Under the pieces are notes generated by a model, which was given only the letters and a program-made list of their open reading frames with translations, did no database searches and was not told the origin of the DNA. Below are positions 45,494-64,000 of a stretch of 64,000 nt of DNA, piece by piece (position 1 is the first letter of the stretch; each line of letters starts with the position of its first letter). Source of the stretch: Treponemataceae bacterium. GTDB taxonomy: Bacteria; Spirochaetota; Spirochaetia; Treponematales; Rectinemataceae. The stretch covers positions 192,001 through 256,000 of the forward strand of contig CAXXVZ010000002.1 in assembly GCA_963678065.2 (NCBI GenBank). The letters are read 5' to 3'. Both the position numbers and the translations under genes were made by a program.

Positions 45494-45560
45494 GGATACC
45501 TCCCTTGTCCCGCATGCGAATCAGGCGGGGACTTCCGCCACTCCCACCCTGCGTGAGAAC

Positions 45561-45617: not shown

Positions 45618-45671
45618 TTTACCGCCGGAACCGGAACAATATCCGAAATTCCTGAAAATCAGGCCTGGATC

Positions 45672-46655: not shown

Positions 46656-46751
46656 TCTTCCTCTCCTGTAGAATAGGTAATTGTATTTTATATCCATCAA
46701 AACGTGTAAACTATGGAAAATGGTGACATTATTTTGTACTCTGGTATCATT

Positions 46752-47687: not shown

Positions 47688-47708
47688 GAGGCCGGGATCG
47701 ACGGCAGA

Positions 47709-48125
47709 TCAGTTTGTGGCGGATGCGCACCCGGCACAGAGACCCTCGATATAAATCTGTATCGATTCGGCGAGGAAACCCTCGGGAAGGGCGAAGGACG
47801 CAGGAAGGGCGGGAACCTGGAGGCGGGGAAGGTCGGATACCGAGCCGCAGACGCGGCAGAGAAAATGGACGTGGGGCGAAATGTCCGCGTCGAAGCGGAG
47901 CTCCGTCCCCGAGATGGTGAGTTTCTGCGCGAGGCCGGAGCGGGCGAAGAGATCGAGGGTGTTGTAAACGGTCGTGCGGGAGAGCGTCGCGATCTCGGGC
48001 GCGAGGGTGGCATGAATGCCGTCCGCCGAAGGATGCGCGCGGGTCGCGGCGAGAGTTTCGTAGATGCGGATGCGCTGGAAGGATGGCTGGATGCCGCGTT
48101 CACGCAGTAAATCGGCGGTACTCAT
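47709..48125 (-). CDS. perR: Fur-family peroxide regulator PerR-like
   Basis: HPSA, TVYNTL, RFD, H.HF.C..C, Asp in VSDL (PerR-type rather than Fur Glu), C..C; co-transcribed with rubrerythrin. Confidence 0.8.
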   Translation of the reverse strand: MSTADLLRERGIQPSFQRIRIYETLAATRAHPSADGIHATLAPEIATLSRTTVYNTLDLFARSGLAQKLTISGTELRFDADISPHVHFLCRVCGSVSDLPRLQVPALPASFALPEGFLAESIQIYIEGLCAGCASATN

Positions 48126-48149
48126 GCCTTCCTTCCTTGGAATTCGCGC

Positions 48150-48698
48150 TTATTTGAAGTACCGGGCGAGAAGTCCGCGGAATGCGGAACCGTGGCGGGC
48201 CTCGTCCTTGCACATCTCGTGGACAGTGTCGTGGATGGCGTCGTAGCCGAGTTCCTTGGCGCGCTTCGCTATCTTGAGCTTGCCCTCGCAGGCGCCGTAT
48301 TCGGCGTCGGCGCGCAGCATGAGGTTGGTCTTGGTGTCGGCGTAGACGACTTCGCCGAGAAGCTCGGCGAAGCGGGAGGCGTGATCGGCCTCTTCGTAGG
48401 CGATGCGGCGGTAGGCCTCGGCGACCTCGGGATAGCCCTCGCGGTCGGCCTGGCGGCTCATGGCGAGATACATTCCGACTTCGGTGCATTCTCCGGTGAA
48501 GTTCATGCGAAGACCCTGGACGACTTCCTCGTCGAGCCCCTTCGCGACGCCGATGCGGTGCTCATCGGCCCAGACGGCGCTGGAGGCCGCTGTCTTCTCG
48601 ACAAATTTCTCTTTGGGGGCGCCGCACTGGGAGCACTTCGCAGGAGTTTCCTCGCCGATGAAGATGTAGCCGCAGACCGAGCATACGAAGGTTTTCAT
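48150..48698 (-). CDS. Reverse rubrerythrin (NADH peroxidase)
   Basis: N-terminal rubredoxin C..C / C..C, then [36 protein letters not shown]. Confidence 0.95.
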
Positions 48699-48711
48699 GT
48701 TCTCTCCTTGA

Positions 48712-48739
48712 ATTAAGTACACTGTTGTATTAAGTACAA
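48712..48739. promoter_or_regulatory. Putative Per/Fur box
   Basis: 7-1-7 palindrome TTGTATT-A-AGTACAA (48725-48739); ATTAAGTACA repeated at 48712 and 48729. Confidence 0.55.
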
Positions 48740-48867
48740 TACTTATACACCATGATTCGGAAATATGCAAGCCTGATCTGTGGTTTGATTTTTGGTTGAG
48801 GCAACACGGCCACATCCGAATGAACGAAACCCGAGGCCAAGCTTCAAGGTGTGGACTCGCGTGCGAA

Positions 48868-49662
48868 TCAGCGGGGTTCTTTCCTGTTCGTTCCGACTCC
48901 GCGCAGAAGATCGCTCAGCGCTGCGCCGGCGCGCCTGGTCTCGGCGATGAACGCGTCCATCTGGTCTTCCATTCTTTCCCGCGGCCCGGAAATGCCGATC
49001 GCCGCTTCGACGACTCCCTCGAAATTGTAGACCGGCGCCGCGACGCAGATCACGCTTTTCTCATTTTCTTCTATATCTGTCGCGTATCCCCTCGACCTGA
49101 CGGCGGTCAATTCCTGAGCAAGTTCTCCGGGGTCGACGATAGTGCGGTCGGTGTACTGTTCAAGAGGAGCGCCGCCTAAAAGGCGATCGAGGCGCTCCAC
49201 GTCCAGCGCGCAGATGAGGCATTTGCCGACAGCGGTGCAATGCAGGTCCTCGGTCTCGCCGATGTTCGTGTTGGCCGCTATCGTCTTGGCGGCCCGCTCC
49301 CTGTCGATGAATACAGCCTTGTTTCCCGACAGCACCGCGAGATGGGCGTTCTCTTTCGTCGTATGGGCAAGCCGCTTCAGAATGGGAGACGCGAGATCGG
49401 TGATCTTGAGCTGGTCGTGGAGAGCTGCCGCGAGCTTGTAGATGCCGAAACCGAGACGATACGCCTTTCTGCTCTCGTCCTGTCTGACGAGCCCGAATTT
49501 CATCAGCGTCGAGAGAAGCCTGAACACCGAACTTCTGTCGATGCCTATGGTCTCCGACAGACCGTCCAGACCGCAGGCGATCTCGGGGTTTTCCGCGATG
49601 GTGAAGAGGAGACTCAGAGCCCGGTCGACTGACTGGACGCCCGTGGATTCGCTTTTCGGCAT
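48868..49662 (-). CDS. IclR-family transcriptional regulator
   Basis: [33 protein letters not shown]. Confidence 0.94.
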
Positions 49663-49712
49663 GCGGACTACTATACGTCCCGGTTCGGGGAAATGCAAGA
49701 ATCACAATTTCA

Positions 49713-49747
49713 TTGACTAATACACAATAGTATTTCATAATACACAA
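49713..49747 (+). promoter_or_regulatory. Sigma70 promoter with direct-repeat operator
   Basis: TTGACT-N17-CATAAT; TAATACACAA at 49718 and 49738. Confidence 0.7.
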
Positions 49748-49762
49748 CACAGGAGATTACTG

Positions 49763-50602
49763 ATGCATTCCACCCCTCCGACGATCGGTGAACTCGAATC
49801 GAAGGCACGAGAAATACGCCGACTCATCCTGCGGACGACCCATCACGCCGGCATGGGTCACACGGGCGGCTCCCTCTCGGAAGCGGATCTGCTCGCCGCG
49901 CTCTTCTTCAAGGTCCTCAGAAACCGCGATCCCGCCAACCCGGACAGGATCGACAGGGACCGCTTCATTCTCTCCAAGGGACACGCATCTCCGGGCTACT
50001 ACGCGGCGCTGGCGTTGCGCGGCTATTTCCCGCCAAAGACGCTCGAGAGCTTCGACACTCTGGGCAGCATCCTGCAAGCCCATCCCGACATGAAGAAGAC
50101 TCCCGGAGTCGACATGTCCTCGGGTTCGCTCGGACAAGGGCTGTCCTGCGGCCTCGGCATGGCTCTGGCCGCGCTGAGGGACCCGGCCATGGCGGGAGTC
50201 AGGATCTTCGTCCTCATGGGCGACGGCGAACTGCAGGAAGGCCAGATTTGGGAAGCGGCGCTCTACGCGGGCGCACACCGACTTCCGGGGCTGATCGGCA
50301 TCGTCGACATGAATGGCGTGCAGCTGGCCTCGAAGACCGACGAGGCGGTGGGGCTTTATCCCCTCGCGGAAAAATGGAGAGCCTTCGGGTGGACCGTGCT
50401 CGAAACCGATGGACACGCGATGGCTTCCCTCGCACAGACGCTCGAGAGCGCGCGCGAACTCGCCTCTTCGGGGCCGGTGCTGGTCATCGCCCGAACGGTC
50501 AAGGGCAAGGGAGTCTCGTTCATGGAAGGGCGATATGAATGGCACGGGAAGGCGCCCGATGACCGCGAGTTCGAGCTCGCGATGCGGGAGATAGGCGAAT
50601 GA
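49763..50602 (+). CDS. Transketolase, N-terminal (ThDP-binding) subunit
   Basis: GH.GGSLS, DRFILSKGH, GSLGQGLS, GDGELQEG..WEA, WHG. Confidence 0.95.
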   Translation: MHSTPPTIGELESKAREIRRLILRTTHHAGMGHTGGSLSEADLLAALFFKVLRNRDPANPDRIDRDRFILSKGHASPGYYAALALRGYFPPKTLESFDTLGSILQAHPDMKKTPGVDMSSGSLGQGLSCGLGMALAALRDPAMAGVRIFVLMGDGELQEGQIWEAALYAGAHRLPGLIGIVDMNGVQLASKTDEAVGLYPLAEKWRAFGWTVLETDGHAMASLAQTLESARELASSGPVLVIARTVKGKGVSFMEGRYEWHGKAPDDREFELAMREIGE

Positions 50603-51582
50603 AGACGGGAGACATGATAGCGCAGAGGACCGCCTTCGGCAGGGCCCTCGTCGATATAGCGGACAACTATCCCCGGATGATGGTATTCGACACCGACGTC
50701 TGCACCTCGACCCAGACGGCGGCATTCAGGCAGGCCTTCCCCGACAGGTTTTACGAGATGGGAATCGCCGAGGCGAACGCGGTCTGCGCGGCCGCCGGCA
50801 TGGCCGCATGCGGCTTCGTGCCCTGGGTATCGGCCTTCGCGGTATTTCTCGCGAAGCGGGCCCTGGACCAGATCCGGGTCTCGGTGGCACAGGCCAGGCT
50901 TCCCGTGAAACTGAACGGCGCCTACGGAGGGCTGCCCTCGGGGCGCGGCGGCGCCACGCACTCTTCCGTGGAGGATATCGCGGTCATGCGCGCGATGCCG
51001 AACATGACAGTCCTCTGCCCCGCCGACGCTGTCGAGACGATGGCCATGACGGAACTCGCCATGAGGATCCCCGGTCCGGTCTACCTGCGGACCGTCCGCT
51101 GCGAAGTGCCGGTGATATTCGATCCGGGATGGATTCCGGAAATCGGCAGAGCCGCCGAGCTCCGACCGGGAAGCGATGTCGCGATCATCTCGGAGGGCAT
51201 GATGACGCAGGTCGCGCTTGAGGCCGCGTCGATCCTCGCGGGGCGGGGAGTCCGCGCGCGGGTCCTCCATTTCGGCACCATCAAGCCCTTCGACGAGGAA
51301 GCCACTGTAGCCGCGGCGCGCGAATGCGGCGCGATCCTCACGCTCGAAAACCACTCGGTCATAGGCGGACTCGGCGGGGCGGTGTGCGAAACGGTGGCTG
51401 CGCGCGCGCCGTGCCGCGTGAGGCGGATCGGTTTCCCCGATGTGTTCATGGAGTCGGGGGACGACGCGGCCATCTTCGAAGGATTCGGAATGAATGCGCA
51501 AGGAGTCGCGGCAGAGGCCCTGAGACTCCTGGCCGACATGCGCCCCGGATACAGGGCAGTGGGCCTGAAGGAGGCACGATGA
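50599..51582 (+). CDS. Transketolase, C-terminal subunit
   Basis: R.AFG, GIAE.N, RA.DQ, GATH...ED, GP.YLR, TIKP.D, E.H...GGLG. Confidence 0.95.
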   Translation: MKTGDMIAQRTAFGRALVDIADNYPRMMVFDTDVCTSTQTAAFRQAFPDRFYEMGIAEANAVCAAAGMAACGFVPWVSAFAVFLAKRALDQIRVSVAQARLPVKLNGAYGGLPSGRGGATHSSVEDIAVMRAMPNMTVLCPADAVETMAMTELAMRIPGPVYLRTVRCEVPVIFDPGWIPEIGRAAELRPGSDVAIISEGMMTQVALEAASILAGRGVRARVLHFGTIKPFDEEATVAAARECGAILTLENHSVIGGLGGAVCETVAARAPCRVRRIGFPDVFMESGDDAAIFEGFGMNAQGVAAEALRLLADMRPGYRAVGLKEAR

Positions 51583-52208
51583 AGATTGCCATCATCAATG
51601 AGACAAGCGCCGCGGATCGGAACGACGACATCCTGCGCGCGCTCGGGGGCCGCAGACACGAACTCATCAATTGCGGCATGAAAAAGAGCGGAGAGCAGCC
51701 GGAACTCACCTACATTCACACAGGCTTCCTCGCGGCCCTGATTCTCGCCGCGGGCAAAGCGGATTTCGTCGTAGGGGGCTGCGGGACAGGCCAGGGATTC
51801 ATAAACTCGGTGCTCCAGTACCCCGGTGTGACCTGCGGGCACATCCAGAGCCCGCTCGATGCCTTCCTGTTCGCGAGGATCAACGGGGGAAACTGTGTCA
51901 GCCTCGCGCTCAACCAGGGTTACGGCTGGGCGGGGGACGTCAATCTGCGTCTGCTGTTCGACCAGCTTTTCACTCCGGAGTGGAGCTCAGGTTACCCCGA
52001 ACACCGGCGGGAATCCCAGGCGCGTTCGCGCTCGCTTCTCCGCGACATTTCCGGCGCCACGCACCGGACGATGGCGGAGATACTCGGCGCGCTCCCGGAC
52101 GGGATTGTCCGTCCCGCCCTCAGGTATCCCGGAATAGAAGAACTTCTTCTCTCGCAACCCTGCGCGGACGGAAAGCTCGACGAAGCGATACGCGGGAGCT
52201 ACGCATGA
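51579..52208 (+). CDS. RpiB/LacA/LacB-family ketol isomerase (DhuI-like long form)
   Basis: MKIA.INE.S, LTYI, DFVV.GCGTGQG, DA.LF..IN.GN, G.GW.G, GYP..R. Confidence 0.88.
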   Translation: MKIAIINETSAADRNDDILRALGGRRHELINCGMKKSGEQPELTYIHTGFLAALILAAGKADFVVGGCGTGQGFINSVLQYPGVTCGHIQSPLDAFLFARINGGNCVSLALNQGYGWAGDVNLRLLFDQLFTPEWSSGYPEHRRESQARSRSLLRDISGATHRTMAEILGALPDGIVRPALRYPGIEELLLSQPCADGKLDEAIRGSYA

Positions 52209-54127
52209 ACGGGATCCCATCCTCCGCGGCGAGGACCGCGCGCGCCAAGGCAATCGCATCGGCGGGGGGCATAGAAGCCGCGCTTTCTTCGGGTGGACTT
52301 CCCGCATTTCAGGACGTATCGCTCTCCGAGGCACTCGTCCTGGGGCTCCTGCGCCAGAGAGTGAGGACCTACATCGGCGTCTTCGGACACGGGACGACCG
52401 AACTTGGCGAAGCCCTCCGGGTCTACGAGTCGGAAGGGCTCGTGAAGGTCGTCAATGTCAGAAGCGAAATCGAGGCCTCGCACATCGCCACCGCCCTGCG
52501 CTGGCACTACGGGGAAGCCGCGGCGGTGTTCACGTCCATAGGGCCGGGCGCGCTCCAGGCCATGTCGGCCTCTCTCGTGCCCCTTTCGAACGGCATCGGC
52601 GTCTATTACCTCCTTGGGGGCGAGACCACACAGGACGAGGGCTACAACATGCAGCAGATTCCCCGGCCGGAGCAGGGGCTTTTCCCGAGACTCTTCGGCA
52701 CGATGGGGACCGCCTACGAGCTGCACACCGGCGAGGCGCTGCCGGCTGCGCTCCGGCGAGGGGCGGCGTCCGTCTTCAGTCCGCTCCAGCCGGGTCCCTG
52801 CTATCTCATTCTTCCCATGAACGTTCAAGCATCTGTCATGCGGGATTTCAACATCGCCGAGCTTCCCCGCAAGCCTGAATATCCGCCCCTCGCCCCGGCA
52901 GTGAACACCCTCTTCGAACAAGCCGTCGAACAGATCCGCGCAAAGGAAAGAATAACCGTGAAGACCGGACACGGGGCGATCTGGCTCGACCGGGACACGC
53001 TCGCTGAACTCCTCGAACGGAGCGACGCCGTCTACGTCCACGGTCCTTCGGCTGTCGGCATCCTGCCCGGAGATCATCCCCGGAACATGACGGTGGGAGG
53101 ATCCAAGGGCTCGGTCGCCGGGAACGCGGCCATGGCGGAGGCGGAGCTCGCCATCACCATCGGCGCAAGGGCCGTCTGCCAGTGGGATTCCTCGGGGACG
53201 GCGTGGAAGAGCACGAAGGCGGTGATCGCCATAAACAGCCGTCACGAGGATGCCTCCCACTACAACGGAAGCCTCTGCCTCGTGGGCGACGCGCAACAGG
53301 TCACGGCGCGGCTTGTCGAAGCGTTGAGGGCAGCCGGGGTGGACAAGGGCGGCTGGGCGGAAACCTCGGCCGGGAAAGAGCCGGTCAGGTCAGCCTGGTT
53401 CCTGGTCAACAGCCGCAGGAGAGAGGCGCTGGACAGCTTCCTCGCCGGACGCGTGTCGACGCCTCCCCTGCCCGATCCCAAGTTCGGCGTCGAACTCCTG
53501 ACCCAACCGGCGGCCATCGGAATCGCGATCGATTTTGCGCACGCAAAGGGAGCGGTCAAATACTTCGACGCGGGCGACGTGCAGGCGAACGGCTTCCAGC
53601 TGACCGAAGACGACTCGCCCGGGATGACGATTACCGATACGGGAGCTTCCTACATGGGATTCGCGTCCTGCGGCATACTCGCCTCGGCCCTCGTCGAGGT
53701 CCCGGATTACCCGATCGCTTTCACGGGCGACGGAAGTTTCACGATGAATCCGCAAGTCCTCATCGACGCGGCAGCCCTGGACCTGCACGGCATGATCATC
53801 CTGTTCGACAACCGGAGGATGGCCGCGATTTCGGGCTTGCAGCAGGTCCAGTATGGCGTCGACTTCAGGACGGACGACACGGTGTCCGTGGACTATGCGA
53901 GGCTCGCCTCCTGCGTCGCGGGAGTCAGGGGCTTCGACGGCGGACACAGCGCAGGGGAGTTTGCCGCAGCGCTCGAAGCAGCCTTTGAATACCCCGGCCT
54001 CTCGCTCGTCCACGTACCTGTCTATTCAGGGCCCGACGAGCGCGGCGGACTCGGGGCGTACGGAGACTGGAATGTCGGCTGCTGGTGCGAGAGAGTGCAG
54101 AAAGAAAAGCACCGGATCGGATTGTGA
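52205..54127 (+). CDS. ThDP-dependent ring hydrolase, divergent IolD-like
   Basis: G.FGHG, TSIGPGA, G.LPGD, G.SYMG, GDGSF.MN, I..LQ, D.A. Confidence 0.75.
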   Translation: MNGIPSSAARTARAKAIASAGGIEAALSSGGLPAFQDVSLSEALVLGLLRQRVRTYIGVFGHGTTELGEALRVYESEGLVKVVNVRSEIEASHIATALRWHYGEAAAVFTSIGPGALQAMSASLVPLSNGIGVYYLLGGETTQDEGYNMQQIPRPEQGLFPRLFGTMGTAYELHTGEALPAALRRGAASVFSPLQPGPCYLILPMNVQASVMRDFNIAELPRKPEYPPLAPAVNTLFEQAVEQIRAKERITVKTGHGAIWLDRDTLAELLERSDAVYVHGPSAVGILPGDHPRNMTVGGSKGSVAGNAAMAEAELAITIGARAVCQWDSSGTAWKSTKAVIAINSRHEDASHYNGSLCLVGDAQQVTARLVEALRAAGVDKGGWAETSAGKEPVRSAWFLVNSRRREALDSFLAGRVSTPPLPDPKFGVELLTQPAAIGIAIDFAHAKGAVKYFDAGDVQANGFQLTEDDSPGMTITDTGASYMGFASCGILASALVEVPDYPIAFTGDGSFTMNPQVLIDAAALDLHGMIILFDNRRMAAISGLQQVQYGVDFRTDDTVSVDYARLASCVAGVRGFDGGHSAGEFAAALEAAFEYPGLSLVHVPVYSGPDERGGLGAYGDWNVGCWCERVQKEKHRIGL

Positions 54128-54179
54128 ACGCAGACTGTGGGCATTGATCGTGAAAGTTGATTGTGAACGCCGACTGAGG
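54120..54179. repeat. 21-bp imperfect direct repeat with a partial middle unit
   Basis: GATTGTGAACGCAGACTGTGG (54120) and GATTGTGAACGCCGACTGAGG (54159), 19/21 identical; GATCGTGAAAG at 54146. Confidence 0.75.
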
Positions 54180-54247
54180 ATACTGCCTTTGAGCAGCGAC
54201 ATCGCGCCGCGCTTGGCCAGTGACCGCAGTGCGGCGCAGGGAGAAAC

Positions 54248-55792
54248 ATGATGACGGGACAAGGACCGAAAAAACTGGGTTATTACGTGAACGGCGGCTG
54301 GAAGGAATCCCTGACAGCCACATACATGGAATGCTTCGACCCATCGGAAGGAGAGGTGATCGCGCTCGCGCCGCAGTGCACGGCGAATGAAGTGGAGGAA
54401 GCCATCGAAGCGGCGAAGAATGCCTTCCTGTCCTGGTCTTCGCTGCCCGCGACGCGGCGCGTCCAGGTGCTCTTCAGGATGAAATCCCTCATGGACAGCC
54501 ATCTGGACGAACTCAGCTCCCTCACGGCGCGGGAACACGGCAAGGTCTGGGACGAGGCGATGGGCGATGTGCTCAAGGCGACCGAGGTCATCGAGTTCGC
54601 CTGCGGCATTCCCCAGCTCATGAAGGGCACGGCCCTCATGGACTGCAGTCCCGGGTACGACACGGTGCAGTGCATGGAGCCGCTGGGCGTATTCGCCGGG
54701 ATCGTACCCTGGAATTTCCCGGCCATGATCCCCATGGGCTGGATGGCGCCTCTGTGCATAGCGACCGGCAACACCATGGTGCTGAAGGCAGCGAGCTTCA
54801 CGCCGCAGACCTCGATGCGCATCATGGAACTCTGGACCGAGGCGGGCCTGCCTCCGGGCGTCCTCAACCTCGTCACCTGCTCGCGCAGAGAGGCGGAGAT
54901 TTTCCTCAGGCATCCCGGCATAAAAGGGGTGAGCTTCGTGGGATCTACGGAGGTCGGCCGACACATCTACGAGACGGCCGCCGCCAACGGAAAACGGGTA
55001 CAGTGCCTCACTGAAGCCAAAAACCACGCACTCGTCCTCGCGGACGCGGCGCTCGAACGGACCGCGGGTGGAATCATCAATTCAGCCTGCGGATGCGCGG
55101 GCGAGCGCTGCATGGCGCTGCCCGTCATCGTGGCCGAAGAGGAGATCGCAGACAGACTTGTGGCTCTCCTGGTCCGAAAGATGGCGGAACTGAAAATCGG
55201 CCCCGCGAATGACAAATCGAGCCGGCTCGGACCGCTCGTGAACGACGCGCACAGGCAAAGCGTCGTGGCCTGGATTGAAAGAGGGCTCGCTGAGGGCGCC
55301 ACACTCGTGCTCGACGGGCGCGGAGTCGTCGTTCCCGGCCATGAGAGGGGATTCTACCTCGGCCCTACGCTATTCGATGACGTACAGCCCGGCATGAGCA
55401 TCGGCGATCGGGAAATCTTCGGACCTGTCGCCTGCGTGAAGCGGGTGAAGGATTTCGAGGAAGGGCTTGCGGTCATGAACGCGAACGAGTTTGCCAATGG
55501 CTCCGTCATCTACACCCAAAGCGGCCACCATGCGAGGGAGTTCGTGCGCCGGACCCACGGAGGCATGGTGGGAGTGAATGTCGGAATCCCCGTGCCGCTC
55601 GGAATTTTCGGCTTCACCGGACACAAGAATTCTTTTTTCGGCGACCTGCACGCCATGGGCACGGACGGAGTGCGGTTTTTCACGGAACTCAAGAATGTCA
55701 CGACGCACTGGTTCTCCGAAGAGGAAGCCCGCGAGGGGCATGTGGCAAACAGCTGGGACGGCACGATCGTCATGCCGGCGCAAAAACTATAA
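54248..55792 (+). CDS. mmsA: CoA-acylating (methyl)malonate-semialdehyde dehydrogenase, IolA/MmsA family
   Basis: EFACGIP, P.NFPAMIP, SFVGST, KRVQ...AKNH, GCAGERCMA, EIFGP, GMVGVN..IPVP, S.FGD. Confidence 0.92.
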   Translation: MMTGQGPKKLGYYVNGGWKESLTATYMECFDPSEGEVIALAPQCTANEVEEAIEAAKNAFLSWSSLPATRRVQVLFRMKSLMDSHLDELSSLTAREHGKVWDEAMGDVLKATEVIEFACGIPQLMKGTALMDCSPGYDTVQCMEPLGVFAGIVPWNFPAMIPMGWMAPLCIATGNTMVLKAASFTPQTSMRIMELWTEAGLPPGVLNLVTCSRREAEIFLRHPGIKGVSFVGSTEVGRHIYETAAANGKRVQCLTEAKNHALVLADAALERTAGGIINSACGCAGERCMALPVIVAEEEIADRLVALLVRKMAELKIGPANDKSSRLGPLVNDAHRQSVVAWIERGLAEGATLVLDGRGVVVPGHERGFYLGPTLFDDVQPGMSIGDREIFGPVACVKRVKDFEEGLAVMNANEFANGSVIYTQSGHHAREFVRRTHGGMVGVNVGIPVPLGIFGFTGHKNSFFGDLHAMGTDGVRFFTELKNVTTHWFSEEEAREGHVANSWDGTIVMPAQKL

Positions 55793-55799: not shown

Positions 55800-55845
55800 T
55801 TGACAGTTTCGGAAGTCTGGTCAATACTTACTTTAACGTTAATGT
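55800..55845 (+). promoter_or_regulatory. Sigma70 promoter with LacI-type operator
   Basis: TTGACA-N17-AATACT, then palindrome TTAACGTTAA (55833-55842). Confidence 0.68.
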
Positions 55846-55876
55846 GACAATCCATTACAACTATGGAGATCACGCT

Positions 55877-56965
55877 ATGGAAACCGTAAGGATAGGAATT
55901 ATCGGATGCGGACGCATATCAGATCTCCACGCGGCGGGTTACCTGTCGAATCCTCGCGCAAAAATCGTGGCTGTCTGCGACGCGGACCAGGCCAAGGCGG
56001 AGGCCAAGGCCCGGGAGTGGGGCGCCGGGACCTCATATTCCGATTACCGCGCTTTGCTCGATGACCAGAGCGTGGATGCCGTCGAAATCATCACTCCTCA
56101 GCGACTCCATGAAGCAATAGTCCTCGATGCCTTGGCAGCGGGGAAACATGTCAGCGTGCAGAAACCGATGACCACCGACATGGACAGTGCCGACCGGATG
56201 GTCGCCGCGGCGGACGCGGCCGAAGGACAGGTCGCGAAACTTTTTGAAAACTATGTCTTCTACCCTCCATTAGTCTTGATGAAACACATTATCGATGAAG
56301 GAGCAATTGGCGAACCGACGAGCATGCGGATCAAATTCATTTCCGGCGTGCGCGGAGGCTGGGATGTTCCGGATTCGGCGTGGAATTGGCGCAAAGACGA
56401 GCATCGGCGCGGCTACGGGATGCAGACCTTCGACCATGGCCACCACATGTGGTCGGTCGCGTGGTTCCTCATGGGCGAAGTGGAGCGCGTCCTCGCCTGG
56501 ATCGACTCGGTGGACGGAGTCATAGACTGCCCGGCCGAGATCATCTGGAAGTATTCGGGGGCACCGAAGTATGGCTCCTGCGATTACTCCCACGGAACCG
56601 AACTTACAATTCCCTCCCGCTATTATGCGAACGACGAGTGGTTTGAGGTCACCGGCAGCAAAGGCATTGTGTCGGTGTCGCGCTGCACCGGGAATGTCCA
56701 AGAGGGTGCACCCCTGCGCCTGTTCGCAGACGGACGCTGGACCGAATACCCGGATGTCGCCTCGGACTGGGCAGAAGGATTCAAGGGAGCGACGGCCAAT
56801 TTTGTCTCCGCAGTCCTGGGTGAAGAAACACCACTGCTCAGCGTCAAACAAGGCCGCGAAATACTCCGGATGGATCTTGCAGTTCAGGAATCTGCGCGAA
56901 TGCACCGCGAAATCGTGCTCGCCGAATTCCGAGGCTCACCAGCGACGGTGCAAGAACCGCAATAA
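55877..56965 (+). CDS. Gfo/Idh/MocA-family oxidoreductase
   Basis: GCGRIS..H, ITP..LH, QKPM, FDHGHH. Confidence 0.92.
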   Translation: METVRIGIIGCGRISDLHAAGYLSNPRAKIVAVCDADQAKAEAKAREWGAGTSYSDYRALLDDQSVDAVEIITPQRLHEAIVLDALAAGKHVSVQKPMTTDMDSADRMVAAADAAEGQVAKLFENYVFYPPLVLMKHIIDEGAIGEPTSMRIKFISGVRGGWDVPDSAWNWRKDEHRRGYGMQTFDHGHHMWSVAWFLMGEVERVLAWIDSVDGVIDCPAEIIWKYSGAPKYGSCDYSHGTELTIPSRYYANDEWFEVTGSKGIVSVSRCTGNVQEGAPLRLFADGRWTEYPDVASDWAEGFKGATANFVSAVLGEETPLLSVKQGREILRMDLAVQESARMHREIVLAEFRGSPATVQEPQ

Positions 56966-57037
56966 AAGAAGAGACTGCGCTAAGGATGAGGAGGCAAAGT
57001 CAAGTGATCGACCTCGCCTTTTGCGCGGAAATATTTG

Positions 57038-57100
57038 TTGACAGGCAGAAAAGGTGGTGGTAAGATCGAAATTGGTAAGACAACCTTACCAATTTCGATC
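57038..57100 (+). promoter_or_regulatory. Sigma70 promoter with FadR/PdhR-type operator
   Basis: TTGACA-N17-TAAGAT (extended TG); perfect 16-bp inverted repeat GATCGAAATTGGTAAG-N5-CTTACCAATTTCGATC (57064-57100). Confidence 0.8.
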
Positions 57101-57134
57101 CCCGAGTTCCAATTCAGTGGTAGGAGGCTGCAGA

Positions 57135-57569
57135 ATGTTCCTGCTAGCGGATGAACACTCTGAATTCGACAATATCCTATGGGATTCAATCGCCGCCAAA
57201 GCAAAAAATGGTGAATTGGCTGTGGCGGACCTTTCGGATTGCTTCAAAGTGCTCTGCGCAGGGTGCAACCACATCGATGAGCTGCGCTTCGAACTCAGAA
57301 GTTACTCCGGCTCTTACCAATTCGTTTTCGATGGGGAACGCTATGCCCTGGTTTTCCGCTCCGGCGCCTGCTCGGCCTTCTCCGGCGATGTCGAACAGCC
57401 GGATATCACGGTGTGGATGGGTCTCGATGTTGCGCGCGACCTCCTTATGGGTAATGTCAATTCCGGCGCGGCCCACATGAACGGTGACATACGATACAAA
57501 GGCACCAAGAATGGTGCGATAACGCTCCAGTCGGTATTTGAACTCTTCCTCGACGAACTCAGCGCTTGA
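57135..57569 (+). CDS. SCP2 sterol/lipid-binding domain protein
   Basis: PD.T......A..L..G..N...A.M.G.I...G pattern; AGGAGG RBS. Confidence 0.78.
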   Translation: MFLLADEHSEFDNILWDSIAAKAKNGELAVADLSDCFKVLCAGCNHIDELRFELRSYSGSYQFVFDGERYALVFRSGACSAFSGDVEQPDITVWMGLDVARDLLMGNVNSGAAHMNGDIRYKGTKNGAITLQSVFELFLDELSA

Positions 57570-57619
57570 GCGCCGCGGGCGCTATCCGCGATGCAATTCT
57601 CGCAAGGACGGGCAGAACG

Positions 57620-59893
57620 ATGAAGTACGTGAAATTCGGAGTGATTGGAGGAGGTAGCGCCTTCAATTTCCATGTCAACGGCGTCCGGGACTCGGAGCTC
57701 CTGCGCTTCGTGGCGATCTACGACACGAACATCGAGAATGCCAGGAAGGTTGCCAGGCGTTTCAAGGATGGCCATCTGGAAGTCTATGAAACGCTGGATG
57801 CGATGCTCGATTCGGACATCGATGCAGTCTTGGTCATGGTTCCTCACGCCTACCACGAGCGGATCGTCATCCGGTGCGCCGAGAGAGGCAAACATGTGCT
57901 TTGCGAGAAGCCGATGGGAACCACAGTGGAAGCTTGCAGGAACATGATCGCCGCTGCTCTCAGGAACAAGATCAAATTCATGATTGCGGAAAATCATCGT
58001 TTCCTCCCTGCCCATACCTGGATCCGCAATGCGATTCAGCAGGGTCTCGTCGGCGACGTCCTGATGGTCCGCGCATACGAAGGTGTCAATGAGATACCGG
58101 GTCTCAGCATCAGTGGCTTCTGGAAGGGCGACCCGATCAAGGCAGGGGGTGGCTCGCTCATGGACATGGGCGCACACAAGTTCGCCACCCTCGAATACAT
58201 TCTGGACAGCCGCTGCACCGAGGTTACCGCAATCCTGGCCAAGCAGGCGATCAACCTGCCGGAAAAAGCCGAAGACAACGCCATCACGATGCTCCGCTTC
58301 AGCGACGGCACCATCGGCGAAATGTCCGTAAGCTTTACACAGATGACTCCGCCCTTCAACAGCCTGGAGATTTACGGAACCGAGGGCAGCATCTTTGAAA
58401 ACCACGCATGGGAGAAGCCCGTCCGGATCTATTCATTCTCGAAGTCGATGGGGGAGAACCAGCAAGTATGGTATGAACCCGAGATCGAGCACGCGCCCTT
58501 CCCGGGCTACTACCCGATTTCGGTCCGGCACGAGGATGAGCATTTCGCACGATGCATACTTGAGCACAGGGAACCCGAATTCAGCCCCGAGGACTCGATG
58601 AGCGCCATCGAGTGCATCTTGGCAGGATATCTCTCCTCTATCGAGAGGCGGCCGGTCGCCCGACAGGAGATTCTCGACCTTGCCGATAAGGGCCTTACCG
58701 GCCAAATTTTGGAACGACTCGCCGAGTCGATTCCCGTCAATCCCAAACTCCCCAAGGTAAAGAGCATGAAAGCAGTAGGATTCGACAAGAGACGGGCTGC
58801 AGTGATCATGGAGAAGCTGGATCTCGACCTTCTCATAGCGAGTTCGCCAGTCAACACATATTACCTGAGCGGACTACCCGTTCTCCACAGCGCTCCCAAT
58901 CCCATCCTCGAGGCGCTGTCCAATCAGTACCCGAACTTCGCGATGATTCGGAGGGAAGGCGAGGGTTCGATCATCCACTGGGATGTCTTCCGTAGCGTCC
59001 AGGATCTGTGCTGGGCGGCTGACGCAGTAGGCGTACACAATGTGCAGGATGCGCAGGCCGCGCTTGTCGCCAAGATCAAAAAATGGGGCCTGGTCGGCAA
59101 GCGGGTCGGTGTGGAGTCCACGGCGCCCAAATTCATTCTGGATGCAATCGGATCGGACAAGGTGGCCATGAAAATAATCGAGGCCGACCCCGCTTTCCAG
59201 GAGATGCGTCTCATTAAAACTGACAAGGAGGTCGCCTGCATCGCCGCGGCGACTTCGATCACCGAGAAAGCGATCATGAAGTGTGCGGCCGCCCTCAAGG
59301 AAGGGATCACCGACAACGAGCTCCTCGATATCGGAAAAAGAGCGATGCTCGAGGAGGGAGCGGAAGGCTGGAATCACCTGACCCTCTCCATCGGCGGATC
59401 GGACCCCGAAGCCCCTGGCGTTGGCACGATTGTCCGGAAGGGCGACATAGTGCGTCTGGACTTCGGAGCTATCTATAAAAACTATGTCGCCGATGTGAAC
59501 GCGGAGTTCGTGATCGGCGAGGTGCCCGGGAAGGCGGCCGCGCTCATTGAAGGACTCCTCGAATTCCAAGGCTACTTCGAGTCGCGCATCAGACCCGGGG
59601 TTCTGATGCGGCAGCTCGGCGAGGAAGCCGTGGCCTGGTACGAGGGGAAATACCCCGAAGGCATCGCCTTCTGCATCGGCCACAGCATAGGCCTCGAATG
59701 TGAAGACCTGCACCTTTTCGGGGCGATGGGATCGCAGGACCGCGTCTTCGAGAAGAATATGGTCTTCGAAATCGAGGCCTGGGAAAACTATGAGGGCTAC
59801 CTCATCGGTGTCGAGGACTGCTATGTAGTCACCGACTCAGGCTGCCGCAAGATGACCAGCCTCGACAAGCGCATCGCCGCGATCAAGGAGTGA
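57620..59893 (+). CDS. Fusion of Gfo/Idh/MocA oxidoreductase and M24 (Xaa-Pro peptidase/creatinase-fold) metallohydrolase
   Basis: N-half VPH..H, CEKP, GGG.LMD.G.H; C-half R.IKT..E, LDFG....Y.AD, GHSIGL, E.E, GVED. Confidence 0.87.
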   Translation: MKYVKFGVIGGGSAFNFHVNGVRDSELLRFVAIYDTNIENARKVARRFKDGHLEVYETLDAMLDSDIDAVLVMVPHAYHERIVIRCAERGKHVLCEKPMGTTVEACRNMIAAALRNKIKFMIAENHRFLPAHTWIRNAIQQGLVGDVLMVRAYEGVNEIPGLSISGFWKGDPIKAGGGSLMDMGAHKFATLEYILDSRCTEVTAILAKQAINLPEKAEDNAITMLRFSDGTIGEMSVSFTQMTPPFNSLEIYGTEGSIFENHAWEKPVRIYSFSKSMGENQQVWYEPEIEHAPFPGYYPISVRHEDEHFARCILEHREPEFSPEDSMSAIECILAGYLSSIERRPVARQEILDLADKGLTGQILERLAESIPVNPKLPKVKSMKAVGFDKRRAAVIMEKLDLDLLIASSPVNTYYLSGLPVLHSAPNPILEALSNQYPNFAMIRREGEGSIIHWDVFRSVQDLCWAADAVGVHNVQDAQAALVAKIKKWGLVGKRVGVESTAPKFILDAIGSDKVAMKIIEADPAFQEMRLIKTDKEVACIAAATSITEKAIMKCAAALKEGITDNELLDIGKRAMLEEGAEGWNHLTLSIGGSDPEAPGVGTIVRKGDIVRLDFGAIYKNYVADVNAEFVIGEVPGKAAALIEGLLEFQGYFESRIRPGVLMRQLGEEAVAWYEGKYPEGIAFCIGHSIGLECEDLHLFGAMGSQDRVFEKNMVFEIEAWENYEGYLIGVEDCYVVTDSGCRKMTSLDKRIAAIKE

Positions 59894-59898
59894 ACGAA

Positions 59899-60693
59899 AT
59901 GAAGCCGCTGATAATCGTCGCCACACCCAATATTTGCTGGCTTAAAACCGATGTGCCCTTCCCTGAAACCCCTGCCGGCATAGCCGAGGAGACAGAGCTC
60001 TGCCGGAAAAACGGGGCTTCGGTCCTCCATATCCACGGGGAGGGCCAGTGGGTCGAGGTCATGACCGAGGTCAGGAAGCGGACGGATATTCTGATCCAGT
60101 GCGGTATGTCCAGCATACCCCTCAAGGACCGCATGGACATCATGTACCAGAAGGCGGACATGATCTCGATAATCCTGAACCATCACGACGAGGCCTTCGC
60201 TGAGGTGAATTGCAATGTGCTCCACACCATGCAGGAATTCGAAGATTATGCGACAGCATGCCGGAGGTATGGAGTAAAACCCGAGTTCGAGATCTGGCAC
60301 TCCGGCTCCATCTGGAATCTCAATCGACTCATCGACAATGGCTTCCTCGATCCGCCGTACATCACGACCATGTTCTTTGGCTGGCCGGGAGGAACCTGGT
60401 CGCCGCCGACCGTCGAGGAGTACTTATACCGGCGGAAAAACATGCCCGGGAATTGCGCGGTCACCGTGAGCATCATGAATGAGAAGCAGATGGATATCCT
60501 CGTGGCAGCGATCATGCACGGCGACAATGTGCGGGTCGGGACCGAAGACTATCCGTACGACAGGCGCGGCAAACTCTGTGCGACCCATGAGCTTGTGAAG
60601 GAAATCGCCGATATCGCCCGCATGCTCGGCAGGGAGATTGCCAGCCCCGCGCAGGCGCGCGATGCGCTGGGTACCGGAAGGCAAATGCCATGA
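59899..60693 (+). CDS. Beta-keto acid cleavage enzyme (Kce/DUF849 family)
   Basis: P.TP..IAE, GAS..HIH, KPE.E, NVRVG.ED, GREIA.P..AR..L. Confidence 0.92.
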   Translation: MKPLIIVATPNICWLKTDVPFPETPAGIAEETELCRKNGASVLHIHGEGQWVEVMTEVRKRTDILIQCGMSSIPLKDRMDIMYQKADMISIILNHHDEAFAEVNCNVLHTMQEFEDYATACRRYGVKPEFEIWHSGSIWNLNRLIDNGFLDPPYITTMFFGWPGGTWSPPTVEEYLYRRKNMPGNCAVTVSIMNEKQMDILVAAIMHGDNVRVGTEDYPYDRRGKLCATHELVKEIADIARMLGREIASPAQARDALGTGRQMP

Positions 60694-61460
60694 CTGAAAA
60701 AAAAGTGGCTGTAGTCACCGGCGCCGCGAGCGGGATAGGCAAAGCGGCAGCCATGAAATTCGCCAAAGAGGGCTACGCAGTCGCGATTTTCGATTGGAGC
60801 AAGGGGATCGCGGAGGTCGGTGATGTACTGCGCAAGGATGGATGCGTTTGTCTCGATGTCGTGGGGGATGTCTCATCCGAAAAGGATGTCGCGGACTTTG
60901 TTGCGCAGGTCGAGAAGGCCTTCGGCAGGGTGGACGCCCTCAATTGCAACGCGGGCATAGTAGTTGTCAAACCCCTCGAGGATACGAGCTTCGAGGATTT
61001 CACGCGGGTAACGAACGTGAACATAGGCGGGACTTTTCTCTTCTGCAAGCACGTGCTCCCGATGATGAAAAGGCGGCGCAGCGGATCCATCGTAAACCTC
61101 GGCTCTGTTTCCGGGCACGTGGGCCAGACCGAGCATGCGATTTACGGGGCCACGAAGGGAGCAATTATCGCCTTTACCCGCGCGGTCGCGTGGGAGGTGG
61201 CGCGGTACAACATCCGAGTCAACTCCGTGAGCCCCGGATCCGTGGACACGCCGATGCTCCGGTCCGACATACGGCTTGAATCGACGCGCACAGGTATGCC
61301 TTTCGACGAAGTGAAGAAACTCAGAGAGGCGGAGCAGGCCTTCAATCGTTGGGCAGATCCCTCGGAGATCGCCGAGGCCATCTACTTCCTTTCGAGCGAT
61401 GCCGCATCCTTCATTACGGGTTCGGACCTGCTGGTAGACTGCGGTTGGGTGGCAAAGTAA
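60690..61460 (+). CDS. SDR-family oxidoreductase
   Basis: TGAASGIG, NAG, YGATK, PG.VDTPM. Confidence 0.93.
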   Translation: MTEKKVAVVTGAASGIGKAAAMKFAKEGYAVAIFDWSKGIAEVGDVLRKDGCVCLDVVGDVSSEKDVADFVAQVEKAFGRVDALNCNAGIVVVKPLEDTSFEDFTRVTNVNIGGTFLFCKHVLPMMKRRRSGSIVNLGSVSGHVGQTEHAIYGATKGAIIAFTRAVAWEVARYNIRVNSVSPGSVDTPMLRSDIRLESTRTGMPFDEVKKLREAEQAFNRWADPSEIAEAIYFLSSDAASFITGSDLLVDCGWVAK

Positions 61461-62189
61461 ATGCAAGAAACCGGTATAGATTTTGAGATCGAGCAGAAGA
61501 AAAGCACCACTGGCATTATCGTCAAAAAGCTCCTGGAGCTCATCCGCAGCCGAAGCCTCAAGCCTGGCGATAAACTTCCACCCGAGCGGGAACTCGCGGA
61601 ACTCATGAAGGTATCGAGGCCCTCTCTTCGGGAAGCACTCAAATCCCTGGAGACGATGAGCATCATCAGCATCCGGCAGGGCTCGGGAGCTTTCGTGAAC
61701 AAGCTCGAACCCGAAAGCATCGCGGAGCACCTGGATATCGTATTCACACTCGACGACTCGCTCTACCACGACCTGTATAAGGCGCGCAGGGTTCTTGAAT
61801 CAGCGATCGCCCGGATCGCGGCCGAAAGCATCACGGACGATGAACTCGCAGAGATCGAGGGAAACATCACAAGGGCTGCCAACTCCGTCCAGATGCCTCA
61901 AGAATTCCTCGCGCTGGATTTCCAGCTTCATAGCCTCATCCTCAAGGCATCGAAGAACCGGATTCTGCCCGTCTTCATCCAGTCTATCAACAAGCTCAAT
62001 CTGATGATGAGGGAAAAGACCAACAGTATCCTGTCGATACGGCAATCCACGATTCGGGACCACCAGAAAATCCTGGAAGCGCTCAGACAGAAAAACCCGG
62101 AGATGGCGGCGAAGGCCATGGAAGAGCACCTCCTCAACGTCGAGAACGGTTTCTACCGGACCGAGGACAGCGGAGGTTATGAAAAATGA
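61461..62189 (+). CDS. GntR/FadR-family regulator
   Basis: LKPGDKLP.EREL, VSR.S.REA, G.G.FV, FCD domain. Confidence 0.94.
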   Translation: MQETGIDFEIEQKKSTTGIIVKKLLELIRSRSLKPGDKLPPERELAELMKVSRPSLREALKSLETMSIISIRQGSGAFVNKLEPESIAEHLDIVFTLDDSLYHDLYKARRVLESAIARIAAESITDDELAEIEGNITRAANSVQMPQEFLALDFQLHSLILKASKNRILPVFIQSINKLNLMMREKTNSILSIRQSTIRDHQKILEALRQKNPEMAAKAMEEHLLNVENGFYRTEDSGGYEK

Positions 62190-63139
62190 AAGAGCGATTC
62201 TTCGTGTCAGGGGCCACAGGCTGCATCGGGGGCTGGGTCGTCAAGAATCTCGTCGAGTCAGGAAACGAGGTGTTTGCGCTCGCAAGAAGCGGCAGCCTCG
62301 ACAAACTTTCCTTGATAATGCCCGAGGAGGAGATAGCCGAAGTCCATATCGTCAAGGGGGACATTGCCGACGCGGCTTTGCTGCGGACCTGCATGGCGGA
62401 CAACAGAATCGAGCGGATTATCCACCTCGCGGCGATGCAGCTGCCCTTCTGTCACACCGATCCCCGGCTCGGAGCCCGGGTCAACGTCGAGGGGACCGTC
62501 AATATTTTCGAAGCGGCCAAGCATTGCGGCATCAAGTCCCTGGTCTATTCGAGCAGCACGGCTGTTTACGGGACCAAAGACGAATATGACACAGCCTGTC
62601 TGGAACACAATGCCCCGCTGATACCGCATTCCCACTACGGGGTGTACAAGCAGGCGAACGAGTGGAGTGCCCGCGTCTATTACAAGGTCGACAGGATCTC
62701 CAGCATCGGCATCAGGCCATATGTCGTCTATGGCCCCTTACGGGACCAGGGAATGACCTCCACGCCGACGGCTGCAATGAAAGCTGCGGTGAAATCAGAG
62801 CCGTACGAGATTTCTTTCGGGGGAGTCTGCAACTTCCAGTATGTCGACGACACCGCCAAGGCGTTTATCCGCGCTTCGATCTGCGACCACATCGGAGCCG
62901 ATACCTACAACCTCGGGGGCGGGGCGATTGCCATGGAAGACATAGTCCGCGCCATCGAGCTTGGCGAACCCGGCGCGGAAGGCCTTATCACCTACATCGA
63001 CAAGCCTCTTCCCTTCCCTCCGAGCGCGAGCAACGAAGAGTTGGTAAAAATCATTGGTCCCGTGTGCAAGACATCCCTTGTAGAAGGGGTAAAGGCGAGC
63101 ATGGAGATTTTCCGAGAACACGCCGCCCATTTGGGGTAA
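62186..63139 (+). CDS. NAD-dependent epimerase/dehydratase (extended SDR)
   Basis: SGATGCIG, IIHLAA, SS.AVYG, YGVYK, RP.VVYGP. Confidence 0.92.
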   Translation: MKERFFVSGATGCIGGWVVKNLVESGNEVFALARSGSLDKLSLIMPEEEIAEVHIVKGDIADAALLRTCMADNRIERIIHLAAMQLPFCHTDPRLGARVNVEGTVNIFEAAKHCGIKSLVYSSSTAVYGTKDEYDTACLEHNAPLIPHSHYGVYKQANEWSARVYYKVDRISSIGIRPYVVYGPLRDQGMTSTPTAAMKAAVKSEPYEISFGGVCNFQYVDDTAKAFIRASICDHIGADTYNLGGGAIAMEDIVRAIELGEPGAEGLITYIDKPLPFPPSASNEELVKIIGPVCKTSLVEGVKASMEIFREHAAHLG

Positions 63140-63252
63140 TGGCGCTCGGCAACAGATAACCAGAGGAGGTGATCCAGGAAGGTCGTTTTAACGACATAGT
63201 CGATCGGCTCGAGCGGATGCTTGAGCTAAAAGAACTGCAAGGAGGCAGGAAA

Positions 63253-64000
63253 ATGTCTAAGCGCGTGCGCATTTCAATGGCGTTAGGGGTCATGCTGTTC
63301 ATGGTCGCTGGGCTTGCATTTGCAGCGCCGAAGCAGGTTGTGATCGGCATCAGCATGCAGGGTAACCAGAGCGGCTTCGTCCAGTACATCACTTCGGGGA
63401 TGTGGGAGTGGCAGAAGAAAAATGCTCCGGATGTCAAGCTCGAAGTTGTGTTCGCCGATGACGATGCGGCGAAACAGCTGACGCAGGTCGAGACCTTCGT
63501 TGCGAAGAAAGTCGACGCGATCATCATCAATCCGGTGGACAAAGTGCAGTGCGCGGCTGCGGTCGATGCAGCGGCCAATGCCAGGATTCCGGTCCTCACC
63601 GTGAACACCATCACGACAAGCAAGAGGGTGACGGCGCATGTGGGTTCGGATGATGTTCTGTCCGGCTATCTGCAGATGAACCGGATCATCGATGTCTGCG
63701 GTCCAAAGGCAAGAGTCGCGTATGTAGACGCAGTGCTGGGGCACTCTGCGCAGGTCGGACGGACGGAAGGCTATCAGAAGTCCCTCAAAGAGCATCCCGG
63801 AGTGACCCTTGTCGTGCACGACACCGGCAACTGGTCAGCGGATGAATCGATGAAGCTGGTCGAGAACTGGCTGCAGTCGGGCAAACAGATGGATGCGATC
63901 GCATGCATGGCGGACTGTCAGCTTATCGGCGTGGTGACGGCGGTGCAGAACGCAAACATGGTCGGCAAGATCAAACTCGCCGGCATGGACTGCGATCCCT
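63253..64000 (+). CDS. RbsB-like sugar ABC substrate-binding protein (runs off window)
   Basis: Hand translation from ATG 63253 (GGAGG RBS): MSKRVRISMALGVMLFMVAGLAFAA signal peptide, KQL.QVE.F, VDAIIINPVD, GSDD..SG, GHSAQ..R, GNW. Confidence 0.9.
   Translation, partial: MSKRVRISMALGVMLFMVAGLAFAAPKQVVIGISMQGNQSGFVQYITSGMWEWQKKNAPDVKLEVVFADDDAAKQLTQVETFVAKKVDAIIINPVDKVQCAAAVDAAANARIPVLTVNTITTSKRVTAHVGSDDVLSGYLQMNRIIDVCGPKARVAYVDAVLGHSAQVGRTEGYQKSLKEHPGVTLVVHDTGNWSADESMKLVENWLQSGKQMDAIACMADCQLIGVVTAVQNANMVGKIKLAGMDCDP

Follow-up and report, generated by a model that had tools for sequence, protein, structure and literature searches.

In a 64,000-nucleotide stretch from a Treponemataceae bacterium (assembly GCA_963678065.2, contig CAXXVZ010000002.1, positions 192,001 to 256,000; called the window below) we analyzed a gene cluster built around a thiamine diphosphate (ThDP)-dependent enzyme that resembles IolD. 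The cluster is a real, conserved and repressor-controlled operon that is so far uncharacterised, and its ThDP enzyme, as judged from sequence comparison, heads a widespread and equally uncharacterised family distinct from IolD. We read it as an IclR-controlled catabolic operon for a polyhydroxylated, probably cyclic compound, separate from the myo-inositol supply and running through a five-carbon acid, and we give this reading a probability of roughly 45%. Gene content, families, operator and co-occurrence were computed, and from them every reaction has been inferred. The parts of the system are the following (window coordinates).

48868..49698, minus strand: IclR-family repressor with IclR domains, likely start at about 49662
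49713..49747, no strand assigned: predicted double-box operator (TTG-N9-CAA, 5 nt, TTG-N9-CAA), conserved and overlapping the sigma-70-like promoter
49713-49741, plus strand: predicted sigma-70-like promoter from a promoter scan
49763..50602, plus strand: tktN, N-terminal, ThDP-binding half of a split transketolase (Transketolase_N)
50599..51582, plus strand: tktC, C-terminal half of the split transketolase (Transket_pyr and Transketolase_C)
51579..52208, plus strand: aldose-ketose isomerase with an RpiB fold, PRK09273 (DhuI-like) family, retaining the catalytic Cys motif
52205..54127, plus strand: ThDP-dependent enzyme of an IolD sister family with TPP N, M and C domains, the core of the system
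54248..55792, plus strand: dehydrogenase of the CoA-acylating (methyl)malonate-semialdehyde dehydrogenase (MMSDH) family (TIGR01722)
55800-55828: promoter-like site of the Gfo dehydrogenase from a promoter scan
55844..56965, plus strand: Gfo/Idh/MocA dehydrogenase of a clade accompanying the ThDP enzyme, likely start 55877
57054..57569, plus strand: SCP2-domain protein, in relatives of which the SCP2 domain is fused to Gfo

The IclR gene is divergent from the tktN-tktC-RpiB-ThDP run, whose genes overlap by ATGA at 50599, 51579 and 52205, and the open reading frame coordinates agree with the gene order given in a preliminary description of this DNA. A gap of 120 bp separates the ThDP gene from the aldehyde dehydrogenase gene, and an imperfect 21-nt direct repeat (54120-54179) is found there. 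The dehydrogenase at 55844-56965 nests in the ThDP-linked Gfo clade and is part of the same conserved system. As had been pointed out, iolB, iolC, iolJ and iolE are missing within the cluster, but iolG, an iolB-like gene, iolD and iolE are present on another contig (C3) of the source genome (5.27 Mb, 99.9% complete, 6.7% contamination). Of 58 non-redundant regions upstream of IclR genes, 27 contain the 35-bp double-box operator, versus 0.09% of shuffles. When the genome was scanned with the operator motif, whose training set included the window's own site, a single site was found at 49713-49747 (next best scores 21.5, weakest training site 27.7), with no further regulon member and none at the iol cluster. 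Short contigs from two metatranscriptomes cover parts of the region (shares 0.09 and 0.06); such contigs can show neither transcripts nor levels.

Against the IolD model TIGR04377, which is still its best curated model, the ThDP enzyme scores 119 bits at a cut-off of 715, in line with the divergent IolD that had been reported, and it is 23% identical to the IolD encoded on C3 of the same genome (25% in a profile comparison, probability 99.9). The ThDP-binding motif, the catalytic Glu and the N-terminal Gly-His-Gly motif are invariant or near-invariant in 31 homologues and align to IolD. From 8000 scored candidates 4899 match at E<=1e-20, distant ThDP enzymes included, and the best 120 homologues show 53-100% identity, several of them being named IolD by their source; the closest relatives are Spirochaetota records. 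At E<=1e-100 the enzyme was detected in 26 out of 401 genomes from the phylum and in 12 out of 61 from near relatives; a set around an Anaerolineaceae genome gave 6 carriers out of 251 and a set around an alphaproteobacterial genome 2 out of 301, with the centre genome counted each time. It is also found on 7 plasmids, and a metagenome scan led to 79 loci kept out of 562 confirmed stretches. A PDB sequence search gave no close structure (best E 1e-14, 2-hydroxyacyl-CoA lyases on top) and the ESM Atlas returned generic ThDP clusters only. In 122 unmerged loci an IclR homologue lies near the ThDP gene in 71 and a Gfo dehydrogenase in 63, and in 13 a Zn-dehydrogenase and a xanthine-dehydrogenase-like enzyme replace Gfo, the two types never occurring together. 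This pair is present in L109, L110, L111, L112, L116, L125, L065, L056 and L031 (gut contigs and Phaeobacter; L numbers denote loci), most of them with a DASS or TTT anion transporter. In L045 a single open frame of 1245 residues (9070-12807) spans ThDP enzyme and Gfo, and URO-D-like genes flank the ThDP gene in L070, L074, L081, L082 and L121.

In the proposed route the Gfo dehydrogenase would act first, oxidising the compound after its import to either a 1,2-dione or an alpha-ketol, and the ThDP enzyme would cut a C-C bond in the manner of IolD to give an aldehyde-acid, most likely OHC-CHOH-CHOH-CH2-COO- (3,4-dihydroxy-5-oxopentanoate). The RpiB-fold enzyme would isomerise this C5 acid to HOCH2-CO-CHOH-CH2-COO-, from which the split transketolase would pass a C2 ketol group on to an aldose phosphate, and the malonate semialdehyde released would be converted by MMSDH to acetyl-CoA and CO2. 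No kinase would be needed anywhere and no ATP would be spent.

To arrive at a non-redundant collection, 134 loci were merged at a 95% identity threshold for the ThDP protein and matches below 450 residues were dropped, which left 100 loci with four alternative downstream modules. Module A, marked by an IlvD/Edd dehydratase, occurs in 11 loci, 7 of them with a succinate-semialdehyde dehydrogenase (SSADH)-like aldehyde dehydrogenase and none with RpiB. Module B is marked by the transketolase and found in 34 loci (32 with an RpiB-family gene, 19 with MMSDH), module C in 27 (24 with a cupin, 21 with BKACE, 19 with an ADP-forming acyl-CoA ligase, 24 with RpiB), and module D, marked by a KduD-like short-chain dehydrogenase/reductase (SDR), in 3, all with RpiB. 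The 25 loci that fall in no module, many on short contigs, include L175, whose fused transketolase was below threshold. As the modules are defined by their marker genes, the finding is their mutual exclusion, two modules never sharing one locus, and no p-value is given since the loci are kin. On the ThDP tree the modules are interspersed, a pattern that one product of the ThDP enzyme shared by all loci would lead one to expect, and MMSDH is present in 19 of the 34 B loci versus 0 of 41 A, C and D loci. PfkB or FGGY kinases appear in 4 flanks and are unconserved, in line with the kinase-free character suggested earlier for the cluster. Queries for class II aldolase, transaldolase, iolB and iolE, as well as for type II glyceraldehyde-3-phosphate dehydrogenase (GAPDH II), phosphoglycerate kinase (PGK), malic enzyme, LarA and TtuC, found none in any of the 100 loci. 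In module C the metal and catalytic residues of BKACE are retained in the one member aligned, and the best model of the ligase is 3-hydroxypropionate-CoA ligase, for a C3 acid (854 of 1300 bits). The KduD-like SDR of module D reaches 286 of 369 bits, with a FabG-like SDR and an acyl-CoA synthetase encoded behind it, and loci related to this module carry a thiolase (L059) and a CoA-transferase (L061).

From what is established about the chemistry of the enzyme families, the substrate must be an alpha-hydroxy aldehyde for RpiB, must carry a hydroxyl beside the ketose carbonyl for transketolase, and must be a 2,3-dihydroxy acid for IlvD, a beta-keto acid for BKACE and a 3-hydroxy acid for thiolysis. 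On the question of what INTERMEDIATE fits, OHC-CHOH-CHOH-CH2-COO- would satisfy all four modules with the fewest missing genes. From this acid module A would lead via 2,3-dihydroxyglutarate to 2-oxoglutarate, module B would give the C2 unit and malonate semialdehyde, the textbook substrate of MMSDH, module C would need one keto shift, assigned to the cupin, to 4,5-dihydroxy-3-oxopentanoate for BKACE, and module D would form 2-deoxypentonate for the FabG-like SDR, acyl-CoA synthetase, thiolase and CoA-transferase. In the available part of PMC6365646 (Price 2019) BKACE cleavage to glyceryl-CoA and acetoacetate is proposed, stated there without direct evidence, and the Klebsiella deoxyribonate cluster shown in it resembles the gene set of module D. 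If ring cleavage yields a five-carbon product, the substrate would have to be a dihydroxy-cyclopentane-1,2-dione, unless another fragment, for example CO2, is lost as well. Other candidates were rejected on chemical reasoning: pyranose 2,3-diuloses leave an ether in place of the hydroxyl that transketolase requires, the diones of quinate or shikimate have no C3 hydroxyl, and a tetruronate fits modules A to C but yields glyoxylate, which is no MMSDH substrate, and does not suit the beta-oxidation of module D.

The isomerase passes PRK09273 (192 bits, cut-off 137), its nearest structure is gbs1892 (4u8e, E 1e-41), which we take to be DhuI, and its catalytic Cys motif is kept in 80 of 82 matches. 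In two module-B loci a classic short RpiB stands in for the DhuI-like isomerase (L074:9475-9948 and L096:7981-8463). In a midpoint-rooted tree of 37 sequences the transketolase of the window belongs to a clade of module-B transketolases with support 1.0, and the module-B transketolases split into three clades; the source genome holds about 11 split transketolase pairs. The dehydrogenase reaches 525 bits with the MMSDH model TIGR01722 (cut-off 448.5). Thus the family calls made before (RpiB-fold/DhuI-like, IolA/MmsA) can be retained, and by comparison it is most likely that the RpiB-fold protein turns the aldose product of the ThDP enzyme into a ketose and that the split transketolase acts on an unphosphorylated ketose acid, both as previously suggested. 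Since the MMSDH types of the window and of Chloroflexota are only 35% identical and the B transketolases form three clades, the pairing of MMSDH with transketolase must have come about more than once. In a close relative the MMSDH gene is in pieces (L017:11877-13192).

Several observations weigh against the five-carbon route. To our knowledge there is no abundant natural cyclopentane polyol that fits. MMSDH was not seen in 15 of the 34 B loci, and that of the window has Lys110 at the first carboxylate-binding Arg; the second Arg and the catalytic Cys are kept, and the Chloroflexota partner MMSDHs retain both arginines, which presumably are carboxylate ligands. As three MMSDH paralogues with 75-76% identity lie in other sugar clusters of the source genome, beside transaldolase-like or transketolase genes (G000:C5:987674-989242, 1030336-1031910 and 1063295-1064851), the enzyme of the window may be a general acylating dehydrogenase. 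The cupin matches are weak, its role is a guess and the PDB search gave it no close structure, and module D consists of 3 non-redundant loci and does not separate C5 from C6. LarA-family proteins occur anywhere in the genome in 17 of 19 module-B genomes (1 above the malate-racemase cut-off), so that D-malate could be handled outside the locus. One B locus, L075, carries a SauS-like enzyme (572 of 600 bits) and four loci from two lineages (L017; L077, L078 and L080) carry TauE-family genes, which together keep a sulfonate substrate alive. Finally, the binding protein of the unit adjacent to the cluster is closest to PDB 4yo7 (E 1.6e-54), which we take to be myo-inositol-bound, a point that the literature search did not confirm; if this ligand is inositol, a six-membered cyclitol would be favoured.

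Such a cyclitol would be the substrate of a six-carbon route that keeps the chemistry of the preliminary description and changes the starting compound. A cyclitol other than myo-inositol, for example a deoxyinositol oxidised twice and with no need for IolE, would give trihydroxycyclohexanedione, which the ThDP enzyme would turn into 5-deoxyhexuronate, the isomerase into 2-deoxy-5-keto-hexonate, the transketolase into malate semialdehyde and the MMSDH-like enzyme into malyl-CoA. We regard it as unlikely, although it ranks first among the alternatives: the best curated match of the ThDP enzyme is to IolD, with which it has the family motifs in common, the nearest structures of Gfo include scyllo-inositol/L-glucose and levoglucosan dehydrogenases, and the alternative Zn-dehydrogenase has scyllo-inosose 3-dehydrogenase as its third-best model, with 205 of 450 bits. 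A C6 acid would fit module D as well as a C5 acid, but it would leave module A without an aldolase, require two keto shifts in module C and let module B end in malate semialdehyde, of which transketolase, given its established stereochemistry, would release the D-isomer. The racemase, D-malate dehydrogenase, GAPDH II and PGK carried by iol operons lacking iolC were found in 0 of the 100 loci, and malonate semialdehyde is favoured over the 3-hydroxy-4-oxobutanoate proposed earlier. The same C5 acid could also be reached with no ring at all if the ThDP enzyme were a 2-keto-acid decarboxylase or ketol lyase on a keto-deoxy sugar acid (e.g. 5-keto-4-deoxyuronate, the substrate of DhuI) and Gfo or the molybdo-enzyme then oxidised the aldehyde. 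The DhuI family of the isomerase, the KduD-like SDR of module D, the anion transporters (DASS, TTT) of the loci with Zn-dehydrogenase and xanthine-dehydrogenase-like enzyme and the 2-hydroxyacyl-CoA lyases as best PDB matches are consistent with it. This is clearly unlikely, as a decarboxylation is needless for an organism with DhuI and KduD, most loci are served by neutral-sugar transporters, and lyases or unsaturated glucuronyl hydrolases were not apparent in the 70 commonest neighbour clusters, read by eye.

Still less probable is a sulfosugar substrate from which the ThDP enzyme would make 4-deoxy-4-sulfoerythrose, to be carried by isomerase, transketolase and acylating dehydrogenase to sulfoacetyl-CoA as in the second half of the sulfo-transketolase pathway. 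The three enzymes do correspond to the SqwI/SqwGH/SqwD arrangement, as far as this is given in the available parts of PMC9594981 and PMC12890257. Besides the SauS-like and TauE-family genes mentioned above, GPH and ATP-binding cassette (ABC) importers and the SCP2 lipid-binding domain would suit such a substrate. On the other hand, BKACE in module C and the acyl-CoA synthetase and thiolase in module D require a carboxylate, the SauS-like gene is found in 1 of 34 B loci, a separate tkt-rpiB-acylating aldehyde dehydrogenase-ligase cluster exists in the source genome (C4:83.2-90.7 kb), and Gfo matches 8qc2, which we take to be the GH188 sulfoquinovosidase, weakly. Very improbable is the function as first written, the replacement of iolB, iolC and iolJ in the degradation of the IolE product of myo-inositol. 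It would agree with the source genome having neither an iolC above cut-off nor a DUF2090 protein nor a transketolase in its iol cluster, so that the one of the window could be borrowed, and with a separate true IolD in 6 of 19 module-B genomes. The source genome, however, already has a true IolD (896 bits), IolE, IolG and an IolB-family gene elsewhere, the cluster has its own operator and the iol-linked transketolases belong to another clade. Among 36 other carrier genomes, a set that excludes 11 carriers of the source genome's own family, IolE was above cut-off in 2, and in 0 of the 19 rated at least 90% complete; a separate true IolD is found in 5 of those 11. With IolE in so few carriers the ThDP family does not depend on it, although genomes of this lineage that carry the family often have inositol genes as well. 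The comparison supports the earlier suspicion that the substrate does not derive from myo-inositol.

The chemistry that is not supported at this locus fits well to an iol operon on C3 (G000:C3:368281-378300; L026:11282-19966 and L027:21-1301) with iolG-iolB-iolD-iolE, type II GAPDH, PGK, malic enzyme and LarA, and a kinase-free inositol route of this kind most likely exists there. Its iol genes (368-373 kb) score 483 bits for iolG, 896 for iolD and 418 for iolE, the IolB-family gene is above cut-off with PF04962 and reaches 89 of 205 with TIGR04378, and the best model of the LarA-family protein is malate racemase LarAH6 (371 of 500). As to iolB, iolC and iolJ elsewhere in the source genome, an IolB-family gene is thus present; the best of 19 iolC matches reaches 140 against a cut-off of 300, and a DUF2090 protein was not found either, IolJ itself not having been searched genome-wide. 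From its genes the operon reads as a route from 2-deoxy-5-ketogluconate to a C2 unit and D-malate semialdehyde, then via malyl-phosphate to D-malate and ATP, L-malate and pyruvate. As it has no transketolase of its own, it could borrow that of the window. The operon is conserved throughout the order, in which its type II GAPDH was detected in 50 genomes out of 250. In 20 loci of this GAPDH, chosen for long contigs, PGK is present in 20, iolG-B-D-E in 15, LarA in 13, malic enzyme in 11 and a split transketolase together with iol genes in 5 cases, with iolC above cut-off in 0 of the 15 genomes with iolG-B-D-E beside it. In the complete genome G250, which is without iolC, iolE/B/D/G are followed by GAPDH II-PGK-LarAH6-malic enzyme-tktN-tktC (LarAH6 602 of 500), and G175 has the same iol-GAPDH run plus two iolC-like fragments at contig ends. 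In the tree of 37 sequences the iol-linked transketolases group apart from the clade of the window, their nearest copies in the source genome being C4:83287 and C4:30967. In another family type II GAPDH and PGK lie beside tartrate/D-malate dehydrogenase-like, GABA-aminotransferase-like and MttB genes (L142:7135-15190, L143:5665-12989), possibly for an ATP-yielding malate-semialdehyde step after demethylation of a quaternary amine; presumably the malate semialdehyde would derive from carnitine. In the literature searched, with most subscription journals outside, we found no description tying transketolase, malate racemase or type II GAPDH to inositol catabolism, and nothing relevant on an IolD-like ThDP/transketolase/IclR cluster. 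We consider it doubtful that both ideas hold in their boldest form, namely that the ThDP enzyme opens dihydroxy-cyclopentane-1,2-dione in an undescribed cyclopentane-polyol route with four independently assembled endings in Spirochaetota, Chloroflexota, gut Clostridia-like contigs and Alphaproteobacteria, and that the same genome ferments inositol by an undescribed kinase-free route via transketolase and D-malate, in which re-purposed GAPDH II and PGK yield ATP at the substrate level.

Downstream of the SCP2 gene follows a further unit, possibly for uptake and upstream steps.

57566..64000, plus strand: adjacent unit extending past the window end, with a Gfo-M24 hydrolase fusion, a divergent BKACE-like protein, an SDR, GntR, an NAD-dependent epimerase and a sugar ABC binding protein

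It lies beside the ThDP cluster in three different arrangements (window, L017 and L175), and comparisons of binding proteins named no ligand. The GC content of 55844-64000 together with G000:C2:256001-258800 is 0.54-0.58 versus 0.60-0.66, and a perfect 16-bp inverted repeat is present at 57064-57100. Upstream, 38358-48815 encodes a two-component system, a sugar ABC transporter, two URO-D-family proteins and AraC, Fur-like and rubrerythrin-like genes. At G000:C4:83149-90732 the order tktN-tktC-rpiB-aldehyde dehydrogenase-two ligase subunits-transporter resembles, from the translations only, a sulfo-transketolase (SqwGH/I/D/KL) cluster.

The analysis sets a ThDP family with several members named IolD in databases apart from inositol catabolism by its context, and it separates two kinase-free look-alikes, transketolase with MMSDH and, for inositol, transketolase with GAPDH II, PGK and racemase. 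The four interchangeable endings cut the possible intermediates to a short, testable list, and with Phaeobacter, Salipiger, Labrenzia and Sinorhizobium plasmids there are carriers that can be cultured. If the C5 reading is true, sediments, digesters and guts would contain a carbon source that is degraded in a way not yet described.

Compared with the myo-inositol pathway (IolG-E-D-B-C-J-A, Bacillus subtilis type), the system has in common an IolD-branch ThDP enzyme, an aldose-ketose isomerisation and a terminal MMSDH, but it uses an RpiB fold in place of IolB and a transketolase in place of kinase and aldolase, its ThDP enzyme is 23-25% identical to IolD, IolE is found in 0 of 100 loci and the IclR has its own operator. 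With the DhuI/KduI-KduD uronate route it shares the PRK09273/gbs1892 isomerase family and the KduD-like SDR of module D, whereas no KdgK/KdgA-type kinase or aldolase is conserved in the loci and the ThDP gene is invariant. From the sulfo-transketolase pathway (SqvD, SqwGH, SqwI, SqwF or SqwD/SqwKL), as described in the available parts of PMC9594981, PMC12890257 and PMC11659671, it has the RpiB-family isomerase, the split transketolase on an unphosphorylated ketose and a CoA-acylating aldehyde dehydrogenase. It differs in the entry by dehydrogenase and ThDP-dependent C-C cleavage, in the MMSDH family of its dehydrogenase, which passes TIGR01722 and is not a final enzyme of the SqwD/SauS or SqwF type, and in the carboxylate needed by the sister modules; SqvD and YihQ were not among the recurrent neighbour clusters, though no search with their own models was made. 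The two endings of the oxidative 2-deoxyribonate pathways in the accessible part of PMC6365646 have their counterparts in module C, with BKACE, and in module D, with acyl-CoA synthetase, 3-hydroxyacyl dehydrogenase, thiolase and CoA-transferase. In those pathways the 3-keto acid arises by direct oxidation; here the aldose acid from the ThDP enzyme would first be isomerised, and the window represents the transketolase ending. In summary, the pathway would seem to work like the second half of the sulfo-transketolase pathway grafted on an IolD-type cleavage and to be no member of the inositol pathway.

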